A stretch of DNA of 64,000 bases from an uncultured Alphaproteobacteria bacterium (GTDB taxonomy: Bacteria > Pseudomonadota > Alphaproteobacteria > RF32 > CAG-239). How positions within the stretch are numbered: the first letter of the stretch is position 1; each line of letters opens with the position of its first letter. The stretch is taken from positions 1,515 through 65,514 of the forward strand of contig CALXTN010000005.1 of the NCBI GenBank assembly GCA_944391405.1. The letters run 5' to 3'. Made by a program: the position numbers and the translations under genes. The notes under the pieces are model-generated. The model saw nothing but the letters and a program-made list of their open reading frames with translations, was not told the origin of the DNA and made no database searches. Below are positions 2,686 through 17,481 of the stretch, one piece after another.

Positions 2686-3228
2686 TTATATGTTTTTGCC
2701 CATTTCGTAGGCTTCTTTTAGCGCAGGACTTCCTTTTATGTCTCCAATTTGCCAAGCGTCGGTTCCATAAATAACACCTTTTTCATGAGCGTTGTTTAGA
2801 CAGTCTTCAGTAAAACCGCGAAAACTTTCCAATACGCGTTCCATATTGGCTCGACTGTTGTCGGCAGCGGCTAAGATAAAGTAAAAATCTTTGTTGCTAA
2901 TTTCTTCATATCTTGGAACGGTTCTATCAATCAGGGTTTTCATTTGTCCGTTCATATTGTAAAAATAAACGGGTGTGCCCATGACAATTACGTCGGCATT
3001 TACCATTTTATCTAAAATTTTTACCATATCATCCTTTTGTACACATTTGTGGGTGGTGTTGCAAACCCCACATCCGCGGCAAAAATTTATTTGATAGTCG
3101 TTTACGTGTATTTTTTCTATATTATGACCTGCTTCTTTGGCTCCTTTTATGAATTCATCGCAAAGAACATCGGAATTTCCGCCTTTGCGAAAACTTGCAG
3201 ATAATACAAGAACGTTTTTGCTCATCAT
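2686..3228 (-). CDS. Iron-sulfur flavoprotein (Isf) / NADPH-dependent FMN reductase-like flavodoxin-fold protein
   Basis: Flavodoxin-like N-terminus (LVLSASFRKGGNS) plus the compact Cys motif CRGCGVCNTTHKC (C-x2-C-x2-C-x5-C) typical of the Isf family. Confidence 0.7.
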   Translation of the reverse strand: MMSKNVLVLSASFRKGGNSDVLCDEFIKGAKEAGHNIEKIHVNDYQINFCRGCGVCNTTHKCVQKDDMVKILDKMVNADVIVMGTPVYFYNMNGQMKTLIDRTVPRYEEISNKDFYFILAAADNSRANMERVLESFRGFTEDCLNNAHEKGVIYGTDAWQIGDIKGSPALKEAYEMGKNI

Positions 3229-3704
3229 TTATACTCCTCATTTGTTACAGGTTCTAACCATGTGGTTGTATTGTTGGGAACGTTGGTTTCAAGAGAAATG
3301 TGCGTAAACCAAGAATCTGGCGCTGCGCCATGCCAATGTTCAATGTTGGGGGCTATGCGAACTATGTCTCCTTTCTTTAAAATTTGTATTTTCCCATTCT
3401 TTTCTTGGTAGCGTCCCTCTCCATTTAAAATCAGTAAAATTTGTCCGCCACTGTGTTTATGCCAGTTAGTGCGTGCTCCAGGTTCAAAAGTGACGTTGCC
3501 TATCGGGGCGTTGAATGTGTCATCTTTTTTACTTAGCATATTTAAGTAGGTTTGTCCGGTAAAAAATTGTCCGTAAGGATTTTTCTCGCCTTGGGCAAAA
3601 ATGGTGTCTATTGGTGCTTTGTTCATTTCGGTGGCTCCTGTAATTGATGTTGTTAGGGTTAAAATAATTGTGCTTAGATATAAAATCAGTTTTTTTGATT
3701 TCAT
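3225..3704 (-). CDS. Secreted cupin-domain protein
   Basis: N-terminal signal peptide; cupin beta-barrel motifs (GARTNWHKH...G). Overlaps the Isf gene by 4 nt. Confidence 0.55.
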   Translation of the reverse strand: MKSKKLILYLSTIILTLTTSITGATEMNKAPIDTIFAQGEKNPYGQFFTGQTYLNMLSKKDDTFNAPIGNVTFEPGARTNWHKHSGGQILLILNGEGRYQEKNGKIQILKKGDIVRIAPNIEHWHGAAPDSWFTHISLETNVPNNTTTWLEPVTNEEYK

Positions 3705-3718
3705 GTATTTCCTCCTTG

Positions 3719-4843
3719 CTATTTTGATTTGGGGTGTATGGTTATTATGCTTATTTCACTAGGGGCTAAGAAGCGCATTTGTGGGCCCCATTGTCCGGCT
3801 CCATTTGATACGTAAATTTGTGCATTGTTATTCATTGTGTACAATCCGGATAAATATTTGTTTGCTAGCTTTACAAATATATGGAATGGGAAAATCTGTC
3901 CTCCGTGTGTATGACCAGAAATTTCTAGGTCAAAATTATTTTGCTTATCAAAATCTACAGGAGTGTGTGATATTAGTATTTTATATTGTGAGTTTGTACT
4001 GGTTTTGAAAGCGGTTGGCAAAGATATTGGTATTTGGTGTTGTTTAGCTGAAAACCAGTCAGGTATACCTGCTAAGTATATATTGGGAGTTATGTTTGTG
4101 CCGCTATTTTCTAAAAATGTAAATCCTAGTTTTTTTAATTCATTAGTTGTTTCTTGATAGCTGGTGTAGAATTCATGATTGCCAGTTACAAAATAAATTC
4201 CTTGTTTGGCTTTTAATTTACTTAAAAGTTGAGTGATAGATTGCACTTTGTTTACTTCATCATCAATAATGTCGCCTGCGAGGAGAATTATATCTGCGTT
4301 TTCTTGATTGGTTTTGTTTATGATATTCTCTATTTTTTGAGGATTTATGGTGCGGTGGATGTGTAAATCACTCAAAACGGCAATTTTGAGTGGTGTTATG
4401 ATTTTGTCACTGTATAGTGTTGATGTCTTAATCTCTGGTGTGGCAATTCCTTTTAGTAATGCGTATGTGGTAAGGATAATTGCTATTCCGAGGCTGATTA
4501 AACTGTTATTTAAATGGTATTCTTTTGCAAATGGGGATCCGATGTGTTGAGGCGATATTTTGTGTGCTATTAACCATAAGGTATCTCTGAATATAGATAA
4601 TGAAAATAAAATTATGCATCCAACATAGATATAGTATAGAGTATATCTGTAGATAGGGTAGAGATTTCCAAATAGATTTTCAAATTTGTAACTGACGAAA
4701 AGAGGAATGCAACCGAATAAGAGAGCAATGGTTAAAGATATAAATTTGTAAATTACCGGTGTATTGATAAAGAATATATAACGAAAATATAGCGATAATG
4801 TTACAATGCATCCTAGAAATGAAGTAGTTACGGCGCAGGTCAT
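3719..4843 (-). CDS. Membrane-anchored calcineurin-like metallophosphoesterase
   Basis: About 4 N-terminal TM helices, then the phosphoesterase motifs D-x-H, GDIIDD and GNHE. Confidence 0.75.
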   Translation of the reverse strand: MTCAVTTSFLGCIVTLSLYFRYIFFINTPVIYKFISLTIALLFGCIPLFVSYKFENLFGNLYPIYRYTLYYIYVGCIILFSLSIFRDTLWLIAHKISPQHIGSPFAKEYHLNNSLISLGIAIILTTYALLKGIATPEIKTSTLYSDKIITPLKIAVLSDLHIHRTINPQKIENIINKTNQENADIILLAGDIIDDEVNKVQSITQLLSKLKAKQGIYFVTGNHEFYTSYQETTNELKKLGFTFLENSGTNITPNIYLAGIPDWFSAKQHQIPISLPTAFKTSTNSQYKILISHTPVDFDKQNNFDLEISGHTHGGQIFPFHIFVKLANKYLSGLYTMNNNAQIYVSNGAGQWGPQMRFLAPSEISIITIHPKSK

Positions 4844-4888
4844 TAATGATTCTCCTATAAAAATAAGTACGACTCGATTTTGTATTTA

Positions 4889-4919
4889 GGATAATTGTTA
4901 GAGTTAACTCTAAGTCAAG
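4889..4919 (-). promoter_or_regulatory. MerR-type promoter/operator (site 2) for the phosphoesterase-cupin-Isf operon, divergent from merR
   Basis: Read on the minus strand: TTGACT (4919..4914), then the perfect palindrome TAGAGTTAACTCTA (4899..4912) inside a roughly 19-nt spacer, then TTATCC. Confidence 0.5.
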
Positions 4920-4951
4920 CCTTTTTTTGAGAGATTGAAATTTTATACACT

Positions 4952-4965
4952 TAGAGCCTACTCTA
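4952..4965 (+). promoter_or_regulatory. Third operator-like palindrome TAGAGCCTACTCTA, upstream of merR
   Basis: Same TAGAG-N4-CTCTA half-sites as sites 1 and 2. It lies about 15 nt upstream of the TTGACA -35 of the merR promoter (4980..4985). Confidence 0.45.
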
Positions 4966-5031
4966 ATGGTTTCTTCAAGTTGACATTGTTTTTGTATGCT
5001 GTATTTTTAGAGATAAAAAAAGGAGTGTGTT

Positions 5032-5463
5032 ATGCGGTATTCTATTGGGCAAGTAGCTAAAAAATTAGGACTTACAACTCATACTATTCGTTATTATGAT
5101 AAAGAGGGGTTGTTGCCTTTTGTCAGAAAAGGTTCTTCGGGGGCTCGAGTTTTTGAGGAGGATGATGTTGATTGGTTGATTATTGTTGAATGTCTTAAAG
5201 GTACAGGGATGCCTTTGAAAGAAATTCGAACTTATATTCAATTGTGTCAACAAGGTGATGCTACTCTACAAAAAAGATTTGAAATGTTTAAAAAACAAAA
5301 AGAAAAAATAGAAAAACAGATGAATACATTGAAGCAATATATGGAGAAAATTGATTTTAAAATTGCCTATTATGGTGATGCTATAAAGCATGGTACGGAT
5401 GATATTTATATTCGTAATACGTGGCTGGCTACAGAAAGAGAGCGTTTGTTTGGGCATAAATGA
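5032..5463 (+). CDS. MerR-family transcriptional regulator, NmlR/AdhR (thiol-based carbonyl/electrophile sensor) subfamily
   Basis: N-terminal HTH (MRYSIGQVAKKLGLTTHTIRYYDKEGLL). A conserved Cys54 lies in VECLKGTGMPLKEI (TGMP motif). There is a C-terminal coiled coil but no SoxR or MerR metal-Cys cluster. Confidence 0.8.
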   Translation: MRYSIGQVAKKLGLTTHTIRYYDKEGLLPFVRKGSSGARVFEEDDVDWLIIVECLKGTGMPLKEIRTYIQLCQQGDATLQKRFEMFKKQKEKIEKQMNTLKQYMEKIDFKIAYYGDAIKHGTDDIYIRNTWLATERERLFGHK

Positions 5464-5477
5464 CAGATTAAAAATAC

Positions 5478-5771
5478 TTAAATTATTCCTCTGATTGCAT
5501 CAAAAATGGGAGTGGTTAAATTGTTTCCATTATTGTTTTTGGTATGATATTTGGAAAGTAGTTGATAATAGTAGATTAGAGAGAATAAACGTACAGAACA
5601 TGTTAATCCCATTTGTGTATTTTTACGTGCATTGATCATTCCAATAAGGGTGTTTCTTTTTATGTTTTCTCTTTTACAGATATTATCAATGGCTTCCCAT
5701 TCTGCATTTGCTAATCGCATACTTGTTTTATGGTTATCAATAAAAATTACTTTACTGGATAATTCTGTCAT
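5478..5771 (-). CDS. RHH_4 ribbon-helix-helix domain protein (family often mis-annotated as aryl-sulfate sulfotransferase), paralog 1
   Basis: KTSMRLANAEWEAIDNICKRENIKRNTLIGMI...LGLTCSVRLFSLIYY matches the S-x-RL..W.A...I......L.....SSAIRVFVL.YY pattern of alphaproteobacterial RHH_4 proteins. Confidence 0.65.
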   Translation of the reverse strand: MTELSSKVIFIDNHKTSMRLANAEWEAIDNICKRENIKRNTLIGMINARKNTQMGLTCSVRLFSLIYYYQLLSKYHTKNNNGNNLTTPIFDAIRGII

Positions 5772-5932
5772 AATTTTCTCCTAAATTATAAATAATTATC
5801 TATTAATATAAAGTCTATGCGTAAAAATTCAATTAATATTTGTATTTTGTTAAAATAAAAAGGGGTGTTTTTTGCTAAGATAAAATTAATTTTTTTTTAT
5901 CATTATAATTATGGATAGTTGATGAGGTTGTA

Positions 5933-7315
5933 ATGTTTTTTAGGTTTATTGTTTGTTTAATTGTCTATTTTAATATAAACTTGTGTTATGCTCAATATGA
6001 GCGGCCAGGATGGTTTTTGTCTGATGAAATAACAGAAAATGTAGGGGTGAATAAAAAAGTAAAAAATGCAGATGAGATATATGGTGAAACAGGGAAATCT
6101 TTGTTAAATAATGTTAAAAATCATAATTTTAAAAAGAAACAGCCACAATCTATTGAAATAATAGACAGAGGTTTTTCTTTAGGAAGGAAAGAGCTTAAAT
6201 TAACATCTATTTTGCTTAAAAATGTTTATGAAGATAATATGGGAAAAAATTTTGTCTTTTCTCCATTATCTTTTTACGCAGTTGCTGTTTTGTTAGCAAA
6301 TGGTGTTGTTGATTCAACATTGTGGGAGTTTTCGAAAATTTTTTCTGTGTTTCGTTTAGTTGATGTTAATGAGGTGTTTAAAAAGTATTTGTACTCTAAA
6401 GGAGAATCTTACATTTGGAGTATTTCTTTGTGGGGAAATGTTTTTAGTCAGAGATATCGAACATTGATAGGTGATATTTTGAGTGCAGAAACTTGGAATT
6501 TACAAGGTAATACTAATACTCTTAATATGTGGATTAGTGAAAAAACAAAAGGTAAAGTTAACAAAATTATTGAAGAACGCCCGGTTAACGATGATGAACT
6601 TTTTGTTGTTTCCTCGTTAGGCTTTTATCAAAACTGGAAATATCCATTTAATAAAAATTTTACTAGAAAAAAGATTTTTTATGCAGTTGATGGTAAAAGA
6701 ACTATGGTTAATATGATGTATCAAAGTGGTATATTTGAATATTTTGAAAATGATTTTATGCAAGTTGTTCGCTTATTTTTTGACACAGGCGACTATATTA
6801 CCTTCTATCTTCCTCATGAAAATTCAGATTTTAGTAAGTTTGTTGCCAATTTTGAGGATTATAAAATGGAGCCAGAATTTCAATATTGTAAAGTTGATTT
6901 ATTTATACCAAAGTTTCAATTGTCTAATAATGCTAATAATATTCGTGAAAAATTTGCACTTCTGGGAGTGAGCGAAGTTTTTTATTCTATTTATAATTTT
7001 GCTAAAATGATTAATTTTGATATGCAAGCTAAAGTATCAGATGTTTTTTTGAATGTTCGTGTAAGAATTGACGAAGGGAATGAGCAAAAAATATTGAAGG
7101 ATTCTTTTATTAAAGGAAATTTAGAAAACAATATATCTGTTATTTTTAATGCTAATAGACCTTTTATTTTTATGATTAATAAAGGTGATATTGTTGGTGG
7201 TTTTGTTAAGGGTAATAAATTAAATCTTGACGAATTAGTTGAAAATAATGATGAGAAAGTAGGTGAAGTTATTATTAGAAAAGATGAAACTTCTACTTGG
7301 TATGATAATAAGTAG
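5933..7315 (+). CDS. Secreted serpin (serine protease inhibitor family) with a non-canonical hinge
   Basis: Signal peptide; NFVFSPLSFYAVAVLLANG N-terminal serpin motif; a C-terminal FNANRPFIFMI that fits the PROSITE serpin signature exactly. The RCL region RIDEGNEQKILKDSF lacks an Ala-rich hinge. Confidence 0.85.
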   Translation: MFFRFIVCLIVYFNINLCYAQYERPGWFLSDEITENVGVNKKVKNADEIYGETGKSLLNNVKNHNFKKKQPQSIEIIDRGFSLGRKELKLTSILLKNVYEDNMGKNFVFSPLSFYAVAVLLANGVVDSTLWEFSKIFSVFRLVDVNEVFKKYLYSKGESYIWSISLWGNVFSQRYRTLIGDILSAETWNLQGNTNTLNMWISEKTKGKVNKIIEERPVNDDELFVVSSLGFYQNWKYPFNKNFTRKKIFYAVDGKRTMVNMMYQSGIFEYFENDFMQVVRLFFDTGDYITFYLPHENSDFSKFVANFEDYKMEPEFQYCKVDLFIPKFQLSNNANNIREKFALLGVSEVFYSIYNFAKMINFDMQAKVSDVFLNVRVRIDEGNEQKILKDSFIKGNLENNISVIFNANRPFIFMINKGDIVGGFVKGNKLNLDELVENNDEKVGEVIIRKDETSTWYDNK

Positions 7316-7342
7316 TTATTTATTATCATGGGGAATGAAATT

Positions 7343-7630
7343 TTAAATTATTCCTTTTATAGCATCACACATTGGTGAGGTACGATTACTGTTTTTGTGA
7401 TCAAGTTGGTACTGCAGAGCTTTTCTGTAGTAAATTAAAGAAAATAATCTGACTGATGATGTTAGCCCTAATTTATCATCTTTGTTGGCTTGTATTAATT
7501 CAAATAAATTTTTTCTTTTAATGTTTTCTCTTTTACAGATTGTATCAATTGCTTTCCACTCAGCTGGAGCTAGACGCATGCTTGTTTTGCGGTTATATAT
7601 CGAAACGACGCGATTTGATAATGATGCCAT
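7343..7630 (-). CDS. RHH_4 ribbon-helix-helix domain protein, paralog 2
   Basis: About 55% identical to the 5478..5771 product (KTSMRLAPAEWKAIDTICKRENIKRKNLFELI...LGLTSSVRLFSLIYY). RBS GGAGG. Confidence 0.65.
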   Translation of the reverse strand: MASLSNRVVSIYNRKTSMRLAPAEWKAIDTICKRENIKRKNLFELIQANKDDKLGLTSSVRLFSLIYYRKALQYQLDHKNSNRTSPMCDAIKGII

Positions 7631-7781
7631 CTTGCCTCCTTTTTTTGATTTCTGTGGTTAGTTTATCTCTTTTTTTTTAATATGCAACTATAATTTGTAT
7701 TATTTTTATATTTCTCCTAAATAATGATTGATTGTTAAAAAATAGTTGTTTATGATAAAAAAAAGTAGATAATGAGATTTT

Positions 7782-8207
7782 GTGAATATGATTTATAAAC
7801 GTGATACTTTAATTTTAAAAAAAATTGTTAATGAAATTTCTTGTAAATGTATTCAAAATTTTAGTAATTGTACTGAGAGGCAAAGTGCTTGTATTTTTGA
7901 AGATATTTATAGATGGTGTCATTCGAAATTTCATTCTATACAAACAAGATATGTCCCTAATGAAATAATTTTTGTAGATGATGCTGTTAATTATGCATAT
8001 AATTGTCAGTGGATGTATGGCGAGTATTTCTTAGAGGCGGAAGACTTTAATCCTCAGGATTCAAAGGATTTCTGTGAAAAAAATATTAAACAAAATATTT
8101 CTGATTTGCAAATTTTTCAGACAATTTTATATATTCTTAATACGGAGCATTCTGCTTTTATAATAAAGAAAAAAATTAATAATTTTTTGCATTTTGATAT
8201 TTGTTAG
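7782..8207 (+). CDS. Hypothetical Cys-rich protein
   Basis: 141-aa ORF, AT-rich, with no recognisable domain. Confidence 0.3.
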   Translation: MNMIYKRDTLILKKIVNEISCKCIQNFSNCTERQSACIFEDIYRWCHSKFHSIQTRYVPNEIIFVDDAVNYAYNCQWMYGEYFLEAEDFNPQDSKDFCEKNIKQNISDLQIFQTILYILNTEHSAFIIKKKINNFLHFDIC

Positions 8208-8227
8208 TTTTTAGAAGAGATATTTTT

Positions 8228-9199
8228 CTATATTTTTGATATGATTTTAGCTATATCTTTTGCTGTATTCAAAAAGGGTGGGGTTGATGTTGATTTGTTT
8301 ACAATGTTTTTATTAAGTTCTATTGCGTATCCATTGTCATATAGGGATTGAACAAAGCGCAGATGTTTTGGGGTTAACCAATTTTTACCTGTAAAAATTT
8401 GTAATTTTTTTTGGGTTGCAGTAGCTTCGCTACACATGGATACTGAATCTCCAGTAACAACAAGATTGTCAGCGCATGCTAAAAAACCAAGGTAAGGGTT
8501 ATTTTCTTTGGAACCCCATAGATATGCATAGTGAGGGTATTTCTCTAAATAGGACATTATTTTTTTTTCAGCATTTAATCCTGTGCGGCGGGATGTGGTT
8601 ATTAATAGTGATCCACCTTCTGTCTCTTTTAAGAGGGCAATCGATTTAGCTAATTCTTCCGCATTTTCTATAGAAAAGGGATGTCTTTTTATAGCCCCAC
8701 CGACGATTACTGCTGTAATTGGATGTGGCAAATGTGAAAATTTTGTTATCCATTCTTTATATGCGCTTTCTAATTTTTCTTTTGTTATGAAATGAGGACA
8801 GCCAATTGTATAATGGATATTAGGGGCATGTAGTTTGTTTTTATCATGCTCAGGGGTGAATATTAGGTCAAATTCTTTGATTCCAAAATACCCAATGTGT
8901 CCTAATTGCACTAATTTTGTTTTAGAATTTTGTTTTTTTATGTAACGAGCAATTGGGGCTGTTCTTCTGGTTGAGGACAGCACAATATCAGGATAAGGTG
9001 CTTTTATTTCTGCTTTTGATTCTTGTGTTAGCCCTATTAAAGTTCTGCCACGGATAAAATTTGGTAAGCTCGCTAATTTAGTATATTCTATTTTTTTATA
9101 TATCACGGAGGTATTTGCAGAATTTAAGTAATTTGCAATACCTTCTGCTTGGTGACGGCTACCAGCTCTGTTGTCTATAAGAATCCAAATATTTTTCAT
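8228..9199 (-). CDS. ELM1-family (mitochondrial fission ELM1 / DUF1022) glycosyltransferase-like protein
   Basis: 323 aa; the N-terminus MKNIWILIDNRAGSRHQAEGIA and overall pattern fit the alphaproteobacterial ELM1 family. Confidence 0.6.
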   Translation of the reverse strand: MKNIWILIDNRAGSRHQAEGIANYLNSANTSVIYKKIEYTKLASLPNFIRGRTLIGLTQESKAEIKAPYPDIVLSSTRRTAPIARYIKKQNSKTKLVQLGHIGYFGIKEFDLIFTPEHDKNKLHAPNIHYTIGCPHFITKEKLESAYKEWITKFSHLPHPITAVIVGGAIKRHPFSIENAEELAKSIALLKETEGGSLLITTSRRTGLNAEKKIMSYLEKYPHYAYLWGSKENNPYLGFLACADNLVVTGDSVSMCSEATATQKKLQIFTGKNWLTPKHLRFVQSLYDNGYAIELNKNIVNKSTSTPPFLNTAKDIAKIISKI

Positions 9200-9296
9200 G
9201 GGCGTAACTTTTAGAAAACAAAATCTTATTTAGTTTTTATTAAGTTATATATGATATAGATATATTTGCAAGGGGATTTTTAAGAGAGTTTTTAGT

Positions 9297-9602
9297 ATGT
9301 TGAAAAAAGTAGTTTTTGTTTGTTTCTGCTTTATGATTTTTGCAATTGGTGCGAAAGCTCAAGTGGCAGCGCTAAATGAGGCTAAATATATTACAACGTT
9401 GAAAGTTATTACGGATCATAAGATGAATGATGTCGATTTAGTCGCTGATATTGATAAGTTGCGTCAGAGCGATAATTTTATTAAAGATTTAAAAAAAATG
9501 TTAGCAAAGTTAGACAACGATAGGCCGAACAGTGCTAAGAATCTGAAAATAAAAAGAATTTTAGAAAGAGCAGGAAAAGATATTTATAATGAACTTAAGT
9601 AA
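9297..9602 (+). CDS. Small secreted hypothetical protein
   Basis: 101 aa with a signal peptide (cleavage around AKA-QV). Confidence 0.4.
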   Translation: MLKKVVFVCFCFMIFAIGAKAQVAALNEAKYITTLKVITDHKMNDVDLVADIDKLRQSDNFIKDLKKMLAKLDNDRPNSAKNLKIKRILERAGKDIYNELK

Positions 9603-9621
9603 TTGGTGAGGTATAAGAGTT

Positions 9622-9993
9622 ATGAAAAAAATAGTGTGTTTGTTTGCTTTGTTTTTAGGGGCTTGCACAACTGAATATATTTTGATGGATGAAAATTCTA
9701 ATCCAGTTCAGGATGGATATTATACACAATTGGAGCAAGAAAGTTCTGTAGATAATAGTTTATCGCAGCTTTCTCAACGCAATTTGACTGTTAATGATGT
9801 TTTTGTGGTTGGGGAAGGTAATGATTTTGTTACTTATCAGTATAAAAATGTGCGCGTAGACGAGATATCTCCTTTAGCTTCTATGTATTGTGCAGATGTT
9901 TCTTATGGCGGGTCTCCATATTTGCGTGAAGTTACTATGTATCATAATGGTTTTATGCGCGCGACCTTTGATTGTGTTAGCCTTGCAATCTAG
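9622..9993 (+). CDS. Hypothetical lipoprotein
   Basis: Lipobox LGAC after a hydrophobic signal; 123 aa. Confidence 0.45.
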   Translation: MKKIVCLFALFLGACTTEYILMDENSNPVQDGYYTQLEQESSVDNSLSQLSQRNLTVNDVFVVGEGNDFVTYQYKNVRVDEISPLASMYCADVSYGGSPYLREVTMYHNGFMRATFDCVSLAI

Positions 9994-10034
9994 TATCTTG
10001 TTCCCTATATATTATCAAAAGGGGATGTGATGTT

Positions 10035-10979
10035 ATGGTAAAAAATCTTTATGAAGTATTGGGTGTTGCTAAAACAGCAACAGAGGCTGAAATTAAGTCT
10101 CAATATCGTAAATTAGCTCGAAAATATCATCCGGATTTAAATAAAGATGATAAAAATGCAGCGGAGAAATTTAAAGAGGTTTCTGCCGCTTATGATATTT
10201 TAGGTGATAAAGATAAACGTAGGAAATACGATAATCGCGAAATAGACGAAGAGGGGAAACCTACAGGTTTTGGTGCAGGTGGTTTTAACCCAGGTGGTGG
10301 GACATATAGGACGTATTCTACAAATGGGTTTAATGGCGCTCAGGGCTTTAGTAATACTGGTGGTTTTGATTTTTCTTCATTATTTGGAGAGGATATTTTT
10401 AGTCAGTTTAGTAATGCCGGCGGGGCTGGTTTTGGTTCAACTACTGGATTTAATACTAGACGTGCGCAAAAAGGACAGGATGTTTCCTATTCTCTTGATG
10501 TAGATTTTTTGGATGCAGCTAAAGGTGCTGAAAAATATATTTCTATTAATGGAAAAAGATTGAGTGTTAAAATTCCGGCTGGTACAGCCACTGGGCAGAC
10601 ATTGCGTCTTAAAGGGCAGGGAATGCCTGGTATCAATGGAGGAACCTCTGGTGATGCACTGATTACGTTGACAGTGGGGCAACATCCATATTTTAAAGCG
10701 GAAGGACGTGATATTTTGGTTGATTTGCCTATTTCAATGAAAGAAGCGATTTTAGGGGCAAAAGTTATTGTACCAACACTTAGTGGTAAAGTTAGTGTTA
10801 AAATTCCTCCATATGCATCTAGTGGTGAAAAATTACGCTTAAAAGGTAAAGGTATTAAAACAAAAGATGGTGTTGGAGATGAAATTGTAAATTTGGCGAT
10901 TATGGCGCCGAAAATAAAAAATAATAGTTTGGAAGATGTATTAAGTAAATTACCAGATGAGCAGTTGAGGGCTTTTTAA
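10035..10979 (+). CDS. cbpA: CbpA-like DnaJ-family co-chaperone (curved-DNA-binding protein type)
   Basis: J-domain with HPD (YHPDLNK); a G/F-rich linker; two C-terminal CTD repeats closely resembling E. coli CbpA (KIPAGTATGQTLRLKGQGMPG...). No DnaJ-type zinc finger. Confidence 0.75.
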   Translation: MVKNLYEVLGVAKTATEAEIKSQYRKLARKYHPDLNKDDKNAAEKFKEVSAAYDILGDKDKRRKYDNREIDEEGKPTGFGAGGFNPGGGTYRTYSTNGFNGAQGFSNTGGFDFSSLFGEDIFSQFSNAGGAGFGSTTGFNTRRAQKGQDVSYSLDVDFLDAAKGAEKYISINGKRLSVKIPAGTATGQTLRLKGQGMPGINGGTSGDALITLTVGQHPYFKAEGRDILVDLPISMKEAILGAKVIVPTLSGKVSVKIPPYASSGEKLRLKGKGIKTKDGVGDEIVNLAIMAPKIKNNSLEDVLSKLPDEQLRAF

Positions 10980-11542
10980 TGCATTTTGAGGCTTTAGAAA
11001 ATTTTGAATGGTATAATGATCCTGAAAATGTTCGTTTTGAAGATGATGCAATGGTTATTTATGCTCGTTCTAATACGGATTTTTGGCAAAGTATTCATCG
11101 CGGATTTAAAAAGGATGATGGGCATTTTTTCTTTTGTCGGCAAGGTGGGGATTTCTTTTTAACACTCAAATGGAAATTTGATGTATTGGAAAATTTTTCT
11201 CAATGCGGAATTATGTTGAGAATCGATGAGCGTAATTGGTTTAAGGCTTCCTTAATGAATGAAAATGCTTTGCAAAATATTATGGCTTCTTCCTTGACCA
11301 TTATGGGGCATTCAGATTGGGCGGGTTTTAATCTATCCCAAAATGTTCATGAAATTTGGTTTAGGTTAAACCGTGTAGGTGATGATTATATTTTAGCTTA
11401 TTCTTTGGACGGAATTCAATTTATTAAAATTCGTATGTTTTATATGCAGAGTTATGAAGAAGTTAAAGTAGGGGCTTACATTGCTAGTCCTAATGATGAG
11501 AATTTTTCTGCAGAACTTTCTGGGTTGAAGCTTGGTCTATAG
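10979..11542 (+). CDS. DUF1349-like (concanavalin-like beta-sandwich) protein, translationally coupled to cbpA
   Basis: TAATG stop/start overlap with cbpA. NTDFWQSIHRGFKKDDGHFFF resembles the DUF1349 signature (TDFW...YGF..D.GHF). Tentative. Confidence 0.4.
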   Translation: MHFEALENFEWYNDPENVRFEDDAMVIYARSNTDFWQSIHRGFKKDDGHFFFCRQGGDFFLTLKWKFDVLENFSQCGIMLRIDERNWFKASLMNENALQNIMASSLTIMGHSDWAGFNLSQNVHEIWFRLNRVGDDYILAYSLDGIQFIKIRMFYMQSYEEVKVGAYIASPNDENFSAELSGLKLGL

Positions 11543-17405: not shown

Positions 17406-17481
17406 GGTCCCATCGTCTAGAGGCCTAGGACGCGGCCCTCTCAAGGCTGCAACACGGGTTCGAATCCCGTTGGGATCACCA
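17406..17481 (+). tRNA. tRNA-Glu (anticodon CUC) with encoded CCA
   Basis: Cloverleaf: acceptor GGTCCCA/TGGGATC; D-arm GTCT..GGAC; anticodon stem CGGCC/GGCTG with loop CTCTCAA; T-arm ACGGG-TTCGAAT-CCCGT. Closely resembles E. coli tRNA-Glu apart from the anticodon. Confidence 0.85.

Follow-up and report, generated by a model that had tools for sequence, protein, structure and literature searches.

Genes at the locus and the serpin product

We analyzed a stretch of 64,000 nucleotides (nt) of an uncultured alphaproteobacterium (contig CALXTN010000005.1, the whole stretch being hereafter the window), in which a serpin gene stands between two small genes of the RHH_4 (ribbon-helix-helix) family, here called RHH-A and RHH-B. 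The open reading frames (ORFs) of all three are in the ORF list at the places where an earlier reading of the letters, made without database searches (the sequence-only reading), had put them. The block, which also includes a short gene termed orfX, is laid out as follows.

5032..5463, plus strand: MerR gene, flanking the block beside RHH-A
5478..5771, minus strand: RHH-A, a 97-amino-acid (aa) RHH_4 (PF13467) protein, from ORF and Pfam; divergent from the serpin
5933..7315, plus strand: serpin, 460 aa, from the ORF list and Pfam PF00079
7343..7630, minus strand: RHH-B, a 95-aa RHH_4 protein, from ORF and Pfam; convergent with the serpin and divergent from orfX
7791..8207, plus strand: orfX, 138 aa, start placed from orthologues; divergent partner of RHH-B
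8228..9199, minus strand: ELM1-family gene, the other flank of the block

The serpin product scored 140 bits with Pfam PF00079, where the cut-off is 27 (E 1.5e-40; positions 6-355 of the 370 in the profile), and 167 serpin sequences of the PDB were matched at E <= 0.001. The signature FNANRPFIFMI, found at aa 405-415, fits the PROSITE PS00284 serpin pattern; the helix-B motif NFVFSPLSFYAVAVLLANG starts at aa 106 and RIDEGNEQKILKDSF at aa 378. A model built with AlphaFold2 (AF2) from a 27-sequence alignment had a predicted local distance difference test score (pLDDT) of more than 90 over roughly residues 80-380 and 400-430, the low-confidence or disordered segments being 15-77, 386-396 (the loop) and 432-460, of which the first two fell below 50. 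When the model was compared by Foldseek, the top matches were native-state serpins with a probability of 1.0 (miropin 5ncs, antithrombin, protease nexin-1, alpha-1-antitrypsin and conserpin). The serpin fold consists of three beta-sheets and 8-9 helices, sheet A being five-stranded in the native state. Profile, fold and C-terminal signature, that is, every feature of superfamily membership that was looked at, place the product among the serpins, and the confident core of the model together with the native-serpin matches points to a genuine serpin, modelled in its loop-exposed (native) state. The serpin of a second strain differs by one residue only, L432P. The protein can be divided into the following parts.

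5933..5992, plus strand: signal-peptide-like N-terminus, aa 1-20, ending in LCYA before QY (ORF and alignment)
5993..6172, plus strand: conserved mature N-terminus QYERPGWF, then a variable, disordered K/E/N-rich linker, aa 21-80 (alignment, pLDDT and substitution rates)
6173..7222, plus strand: serpin core, aa 81-430 (PF00079, pLDDT above 90, Foldseek and substitution rates)
7070..7144, plus strand: degenerate hinge and reactive-centre loop (RCL) DEGNEQKILKDSFIKGNLENNISVI, aa 380-404 (alignment to antithrombin, pLDDT and substitution rates)
7223..7315, plus strand: C-terminal tail, aa 431-460 and stop (alignment; disordered in the AF2 model)

The N-terminus, MFFRFIVCLIVYFNINLCYA before QYERPGWF, resembles a type I signal peptide, with a single basic residue, a hydrophobic core of 9 residues and C-Y-A at its end. 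Both the hydrophobic N-terminus and the junction AQYxRPGWFV are conserved in nearly all members of the clade of 35 proteins to which this serpin belongs (alignment), and the protein is predicted on these grounds to be Sec-exported. A lipoprotein was considered and rejected, as relatives do not keep the Cys that precedes the cleavage site and there is hence no lipobox. The signature and the N-terminal motif announced by the sequence-only reading are where it had put them, and the N-terminus is signal-peptide-like, in line with the same reading.

The best structural match to the window serpin is native miropin of Tannerella forsythia (Foldseek E 1.9e-28, TM 0.78 on the target). Miropin, the serpin of Bifidobacterium longum and the siropins are, like the window protein, exported serpin-fold proteins of gut or oral bacteria; however, the window protein adds a disordered N-terminal linker of about 60 aa and the QYxRPGWF start, and the identity to this group is about 19%.

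Hinge, loop and body of the serpin

The hinge of inhibitory serpins follows the consensus ExGTEAAAA from P17 to P9 (Hopkins 1993 and Irving 2000, cited in PMC8233489 and PMC10090351), with small residues at P12-P9 and T or S at P14. In the window protein HMMER aligns EGNEQKILKDSFIKGNLENNISVIF with the antithrombin loop, the register given by MAFFT being shifted by one residue, and the hinge, read as D-E-G-N-E-Q-K-I-L-K-D, departs from the consensus. In either register the inward-facing positions P14, P12, P10 and P8 are occupied by N/E, Q/K, I/L and K/D, where the consensus has T/S, A, A and T. A relaxed form of the rule was satisfied by just one of the 35 serpins of the clade, compared with 17 of 20 bacterial serpins of the outgroup; the non-canonical hinge that had led the sequence-only reading to suggest a non-inhibitory serpin is therefore real, and nearly clade-wide. 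The hinge and RCL are hypervariable across the clade, with 18-35 residues separating P17 from the Phe of strand s1C.

The shutter is altered as well. Its Asn (in N-T-x-Y-F) is Ser227 in the window protein, while the outgroup column has N in 18 of 18 sequences, and the His that precedes s5A is Leu373, with H in 15 of 18 in the outgroup; most of the clade is also devoid of both residues, N186 and H334 in alpha-1-antitrypsin numbering. As far as sequence can tell, the window protein has neither the hinge nor the shutter of an inhibitory serpin, the two features tested, and we consider it somewhat probable that inhibition by the classical mechanism has been lost. Spence et al. note serpins of Streptomyces in which breach and shutter have diverged and which may be non-inhibitory (PMC8233489).

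Several observations weigh against this reading, and they would favour a protein that still works as an inhibitor by the classical mechanism in spite of its odd hinge, its fast loop being the outcome of an arms race with target proteases of the gut. The loop of the window protein measures 25-26 residues from P17 to the s1C Phe, a canonical length equal to that of antithrombin; P17 is still acidic, the hinge still has a Gly (P15 or P16) and the breach Trp has been retained; the AF2 model is native and loop-exposed; the core is under purifying selection; and the case for loss of inhibition is itself drawn from sequence rules. Moreover, host-associated bacterial serpins such as miropin, that of B. 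longum and the siropins have been shown to be protease inhibitors (PMC10090351), but those proteins keep ExGTEAAAA, whereas the window has DEGNEQKILKD and has lost the shutter Asn and His. Serpins engaged in arms races keep their hinge and vary P4-P4', while in this clade close relatives differ in the hinge itself, and charged or bulky residues occupy its inward-facing even positions. Several loops of the clade have only 18 residues. We judge a loop of this length too short for full insertion with translocation of the protease. Taken with the near absence of the hinge rule from the clade, these points make a functional inhibitor unlikely.

Rates of substitution were then obtained as the ratio of nonsynonymous to synonymous divergence (dN/dS) by the Nei-Gojobori method. 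These ratios have to be read with dS near saturation (about 1 or more), which is another point to be set against the loss of inhibition insofar as it leans on them.

Whole serpin: about 0.25
Serpin core: 0.15-0.17
N-terminal linker: about 0.5
RCL, against relatives L001 and L006 (L numbers denote loci and P numbers serpin proteins): 1.06-1.11
Neighbouring genes: 0.02-0.11

The values for RHH-A and RHH-B were 0.025-0.08 and 0.02-0.13, respectively. The high ratio of the RCL rests on 22-23 poorly aligned codons, and against a third relative, L004, the same segment gave 0.17; both facts likewise weaken the case for a freely drifting loop. Even so, a core at 0.15-0.17 beside an RCL at about 1 argues that the body is maintained under purifying selection and the loop is not, a pattern that would speak both against a pseudogene and against a classical inhibitor.

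The same figures bear on the possibility that inhibition was lost under relaxed selection and that what is left is a non-functional gene turning into a pseudogene. The serpin outpaces its neighbours in rate of evolution by a factor of 3 to 10, its identity to the window protein being 35-65% in relatives (25-61% for orfX, 62-97% for the flanking genes); it is absent from two loci, L028 and L034, that are otherwise related; and its amino acids have drifted with an AT bias. Its tail also appears to have been cut short in this species: in the segment 7296-7345 the window protein ends in STWYDNK followed by the stop, while relatives continue with PAWYENKNxQGDFILKENLK, and the DNA 3' of the stop retains a resemblance to the stretch that encodes the tail in L001 and L006, which points to a truncation of recent date, through a small deletion or a nonsense change. 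However, the ORF is intact and full-length in all 35 proteins of the clade and in about 20 loci over deep divergence, the core ratio is far under 1, the alignment contains 21 invariant and 42 near-invariant columns, and the signal peptide and mature N-terminal motif are conserved. Decay of a useless gene is thus quite improbable.

What the clade descended from can be seen in its only canonical member, P0151, encoded at locus L016 (GCA_965315125.1, CBDNAZ010000002.1). This protein carries ESGTEAAAAS and KVDESGTEAAAASVAMEM, and the gene order around it, MerR/RHH-A/serpin/RHH-B/orfX/ELM1, is that of the window. It shares with the window serpin the mature N-terminus AQYxRPGWFV and the C-terminal tail NGNPAWYE, and it differs from it in its canonical hinge (ESGTEAAAASVAMEM), the same as in the miropin and siropin group, and in a shutter Asn that is kept; its composition is ordinary (42.8% GC against 41.7% for the locus). 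We regard it as the ancestral form at the locus. Remnants of such a hinge are found in other members, namely RTEAT (P0017), KTEAV (P0154) and GGEAD (P0152), and they fit a gradual and separate decay.

Neighbor-joining (NJ) trees of the serpins alone, rooted with the outgroup, placed P0151 inconsistently, nested once and basal once; only 29% of bootstraps were compatible with a single loss of the hinge, and deep nodes had 2-35% support. These trees cannot separate a single loss from several, which is to be counted against repeated loss. Because they contradict each other on P0151 we relied on a rooted NJ tree of the neighbouring genes (ELM1, DnaJ and DUF1349; 819 columns, 100 bootstraps), with outgroup loci taken from an ELM1-anchored scan of metagenomes. 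In that tree L016 belongs to clade I (100% bootstrap), where the window and L008 groups together are its sister (94%), and clade II (L010, L012, L013, L014, L030 and L033) branches outside clade I. Hinges are degenerate in clade II and in the window and L008 groups, L016 alone being canonical. Since the canonical locus is nested among degenerate ones, the hinge appears to have been lost at least twice independently, in clade II and, separately, in the window and L008 groups.

Two serpins of the outgroup, P0161 and P0162 (716 and 740 aa), have a canonical hinge and bear a C-terminal extension of about 330 aa that is Cys-rich and internally repeated.

Inheritance of the locus and the RHH_4 pair

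The order RHH-A, serpin, RHH-B, orfX, ELM1, o101, o123, DnaJ, DUF1349 is kept in about 20 loci, drawn from rumen, bovine and human-gut assemblies, down to a serpin identity of 35%. It is present in L001, L003, L004-L009, L016 and deeper relatives and is missing only from L028, L034 and distant outgroups, and the tree of the serpin is congruent with that of the neighbouring genes. These data indicate vertical inheritance within a gut and rumen alphaproteobacterial lineage, with no recent acquisition.

The sequence-only reading had seen in the locus a cargo gene acquired between duplicated regulators, with AT-richness as its sign. The segment 5478-8227 is in fact the lowest-GC stretch of 2.75 kb in the window (26.7% against 34.4%, z = -3.1), but the value of this as a mark of foreign origin did not hold. 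GC at third codon positions (GC3) is 0.195 in the serpin, close to 0.206 in DnaJ, 0.236 in MerR and 0.244 in ELM1, and the dip lies in codon positions 1 and 2, where it would reflect amino-acid composition, as expected from fast protein evolution under AT pressure. Among relatives the serpin lies 0 to 4.5 points under the GC of its locus, and in L008, L010 and L016 not below it at all. Neither an integrase or transposase ORF (3000-11000), nor a tRNA target, nor flanking direct repeats were found as signs of mobility, the only long direct repeat at the locus being the RHH gene pair itself. Relatives, in short, carry the serpin in vertical synteny and with ordinary composition, the pattern that the sequence-only reading had named as speaking against its own proposal.

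The distribution of the cassette leaves an older event to be considered. About 30 outgroup loci, each covering 3 kb or more on the cassette side of ELM1, keep the genes DUF1349, DnaJ, o123, o101 and ELM1 and have no orfX, RHH_4 or serpin beside ELM1. In two further loci RHH-B and RHH-A stand in tandem on one strand with no serpin between them, 1 nt apart in L028 (L028:7712-8309) and 55 nt apart in L034 (L034:6077-6722). The empty site of L028 is a deletion, because this locus is nested among serpin-bearing ones; that of L034 could have been empty from the start or have arisen by a further deletion, since its basal position in the rooted neighbour-gene tree has 65% support only. These serpin-less loci show the RHH_4 pair and orfX to be the more stable unit, in which the serpin is dispensable on a deep timescale, and to this extent the idea of an insert between older regulators survives. 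As a recent arrival it is refuted by synteny, congruent trees and GC3, and a cargo gene that came in recently by horizontal transfer is very improbable, however patchily serpins are distributed in bacteria (PMC8233489), given also an RHH duplication that predates the whole clade.

Both flanking genes exceed the PF13467 cut-off of 25 bits, RHH-A with 44.7 and RHH-B with 39.3, and the matches extend over 64 of the 67 profile positions. Their products are 59% identical (BLASTP E 1e-37) and form an orthologous RHH-A clade across 8 loci and an orthologous RHH-B clade across 9; the existence of these two clades indicates that they are true paralogues, as the sequence-only reading had stated for its two minus-strand genes, and that the duplication predates the entire serpin-bearing group. 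A toxin-antitoxin system was discarded, RHH-A and RHH-B being monocistronic with no downstream partner. As a working model we took the RHH autoregulators of the CopG/Arc/MetJ type, small proteins in which two helices come after an N-terminal beta-strand. The likeness extends to a conserved imperfect inverted repeat, T(A/G)CAA-N7-TTG(C/A)A, which precedes the RHH_4 genes and overlaps their own -35-like hexamer; unlike the model, these genes are monocistronic and have no toxin partner, and their binding to DNA is putative. The elements considered upstream of the pair are listed below.

5775..5786, minus strand: TTTCTCCTAAAT copy 1, reverse complement of the Shine-Dalgarno region of RHH-A, whose GGAG (5778-5781) stands 6 nt ahead of the ATG
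7711..7722, no strand assigned: TTTCTCCTAAAT copy 2, at 81 nt from RHH-B and 68 nt from orfX, upstream of both
5828..5845, no strand assigned: A copy, TTCAATTAATATTTGTAT, of a shared operator- or promoter-like element, reading ATACAAAT-N5-TTGAAT on the minus strand and holding the -35-like hexamer of RHH-A
7683..7700, no strand assigned: B copy, TGCAACTATAATTTGTAT, of the same element, reading ATACAAAT-N5-TTGCAT on the minus strand, followed after 16 nt by TAAACT (-10-like)
5872..5909, plus strand: conserved block 5' of the serpin, with the palindrome TGCTAAGATAAAATTAATTTTTTTTTATCA and then TATAAT at 5904-5909, near-identical in the window, L001, L004 and L006

The first of these, which the sequence-only reading had proposed as a regulatory motif common to both genes, did not stand up as such. 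TTTCTCCTAAAT occurs exactly twice; with up to one mismatch there are 4 occurrences where 1.08 are expected, a number reached by 4 of 100 shuffles. Copy 1 is the ribosome-binding site of RHH-A, and relatives keep only its CTCC, that is, the site itself. RHH-B has its own GGAGG at 7635-7639, apart from copy 2, and the two copies are 1936 nt apart while the genes are 1865 nt apart, so that copy 2 is out of register; relatives do not conserve the 12-mer as such, copy 2 being kept in part, as TCTYTAAATAATGATTGATT, in L001 and L006.

The shared element T(T/G)CAA(T/C)TWWWATTTGTAT has its only exact matches at 5828 and 7683. On the RHH strand it reads ATACAAAT-N5-TTG(A/C)AT, an imperfect inverted repeat in which a -35-like hexamer makes up the right arm, and in the A copy the minus strand continues as TTGAAT-16-TATATT. 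The A copy is conserved in L001, L003, L004, L006, L010 and L016 and the B copy in L001, L004, L006, L008 and L016; the difference between TTGAAT (A) and TTGCAT (B) is kept across the clade I relatives, except for L016, whose A copy is TTGCAT. RHH_4 paralogues located elsewhere are preceded by related sequences, a close variant, ATACAA...GTTGCAT, beside TatD in L020 and a looser resemblance, ATACAAAT...GTGTAT, beside rplL in L018, while in the serpin-less L028 and L034 only RHH-B keeps an upstream element, ATTACAAA...TTG(T/C)AT. Since the element accompanies the RHH genes, the preferred reading is that of an RHH promoter together with a putative autoregulatory operator. The block before the serpin is of another kind: TGCTAAGATAAAATTAATTTTTTTTTATCA is an imperfect palindrome of 30 nt at 5873-5902, not present in the RHH-B/orfX intergenic region, and it could be a second operator, specific for the serpin.

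The account that we hold to be fairly probable is that the window encodes an exported serpin-fold protein derived from a canonical inhibitory ancestor at the same locus, which has lost the features of a suicide substrate. Starting from an inhibitory serpin at this chromosomal position, the hinge would have gained charged and bulky residues, the shutter positions N186 and H334 would have been replaced and the loop would have drifted as unconstrained sequence, while the folded body would have stayed under purifying selection, with the ORF intact in every lineage seen. The protein would act in the periplasm, on the cell or outside it as a non-inhibitory serpin, that is, as a binding protein and at most a protease substrate or decoy; of its conceivable present roles, body-mediated binding or a decoy function in the periplasm or outside the cell appears the likeliest. 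Transcription of the serpin probably starts in the 161-bp region common to the divergent RHH-A. Because this intergenic region carries the same conserved operator-like element, repression dependent on RHH_4 would be the likeliest form of control, exerted through the element that overlaps the -35 of both RHH_4 promoters.

The regulatory part of this account has its own counterweights. A literature search on RHH_4/PF13467 returned no relevant report, and none on function or DNA binding, and a PDB sequence search with RHH-B gave nothing meaningful (best E 0.84), no solved RHH_4 structure being found. A promoter scan detected 18 sites against 19.1 in shuffled sequence; as there is no excess, no promoters were assigned beyond the conserved hexamers. 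Furthermore, the RHH_4 pair persists without a serpin in L028 and L034, and regulation of the serpin therefore cannot be the only role of the pair and may not be a role of it at all.

In principle the window serpin resembles non-inhibitory serpins of eukaryotes. Ovalbumin, maspin, PEDF and HSP47 are such serpins that, like the window protein, combine the serpin fold with a hinge off the small-residue consensus. They act through the body and not by loop insertion, and chains of HSP47 and ovalbumin are among the sequence and fold matches of the window serpin. Ovalbumin has a charged residue at P14. The relationship is at the level of the superfamily only, the window protein being bacterial and predicted to be Sec-exported. 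Non-inhibitory serpins that serve as chaperones, carriers or signalling proteins are well known in animals, and whether such roles exist among prokaryotic serpins is unknown (PMC10090351); we found no description of this alphaproteobacterial clade in the literature. The full picture of a vertically inherited family of non-inhibitory bacterial serpins, with a hinge lost at least twice, a new function mediated by the body and control through a shared operator by a duplicated RHH_4 pair, is a tentative one, to which we would give rather less than an even chance. A single locus here offers a natural series from a canonical hinge (L016) to degenerate ones, so that inhibitory and non-inhibitory forms can be compared within one protein framework. 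The surfaces that the degenerate forms conserve could be mined for the new function, and the RHH_4 family gains a concrete candidate operator and candidate target genes. The locus would be of no more than local interest should the protein prove to be a common inhibitor or the gene to be in decay.

Neighbouring genes and further observations

The stop codons of the convergent serpin and RHH-B (7313-7345) are 27 nt apart, and a terminator scan found no terminator-like site between them. The transcripts would overlap, and antisense interference is therefore possible. In L010, L012 and L014 the gap between the two genes is 3-5 nt, and in L013 they overlap (L013:7239-7242).

The product of orfX is fast-evolving and devoid of a signal peptide, and its AF2 model is all-helical with a pLDDT of 66. 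It matched nothing in Pfam, NCBIfam or PADLOC, its model had no fold match in the PDB at E <= 0.001, and a word-indexed search returned 4 homologues; the gene is nonetheless present in most cassette loci, including the serpin-less ones. NCBIfam and PADLOC also gave no match for the serpin, RHH-A or RHH-B, that is, no named equivalog and no known defence system. Across the window, tblastn detected no additional copies of RHH_4 or serpin, and Rfam a single tRNA, at 17406.

When synonymous divergence from L001 was followed along the window, a step was observed. FMN reductase, cupin, metallophosphatase and MerR (2686-5463) gave values of 0.37-0.61, and RHH-A through DUF1349 (5478-11542) values of 0.8-2.2; the boundary between MerR and RHH-A may mark a recombination breakpoint between lineages. 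In a human-gut contig (L023:9870-10500) ABC-ATPase/UvrA-like sequence takes the place of the 5' part of the serpin locus, with RHH-A and MerR missing, which is either a rearrangement or an assembly chimera.

Beside ELM1 and DnaJ, positions 9297-9993 encode two small proteins of exported type that are conserved well beyond the serpin-bearing clade. The one of 101 aa has a signal peptide and a sole Pfam match, Med15_M, below the gathering cut-off, and the one of 123 aa has a lipoprotein-like LGAC motif and no convincing family match. Finally, a rumen alphaproteobacterial contig carries, a few kb from its serpin cassette (L010:12968-13344), a gene that matches Pfam PF00277, serum amyloid A, an acute-phase family of animals that is unusual in bacteria.

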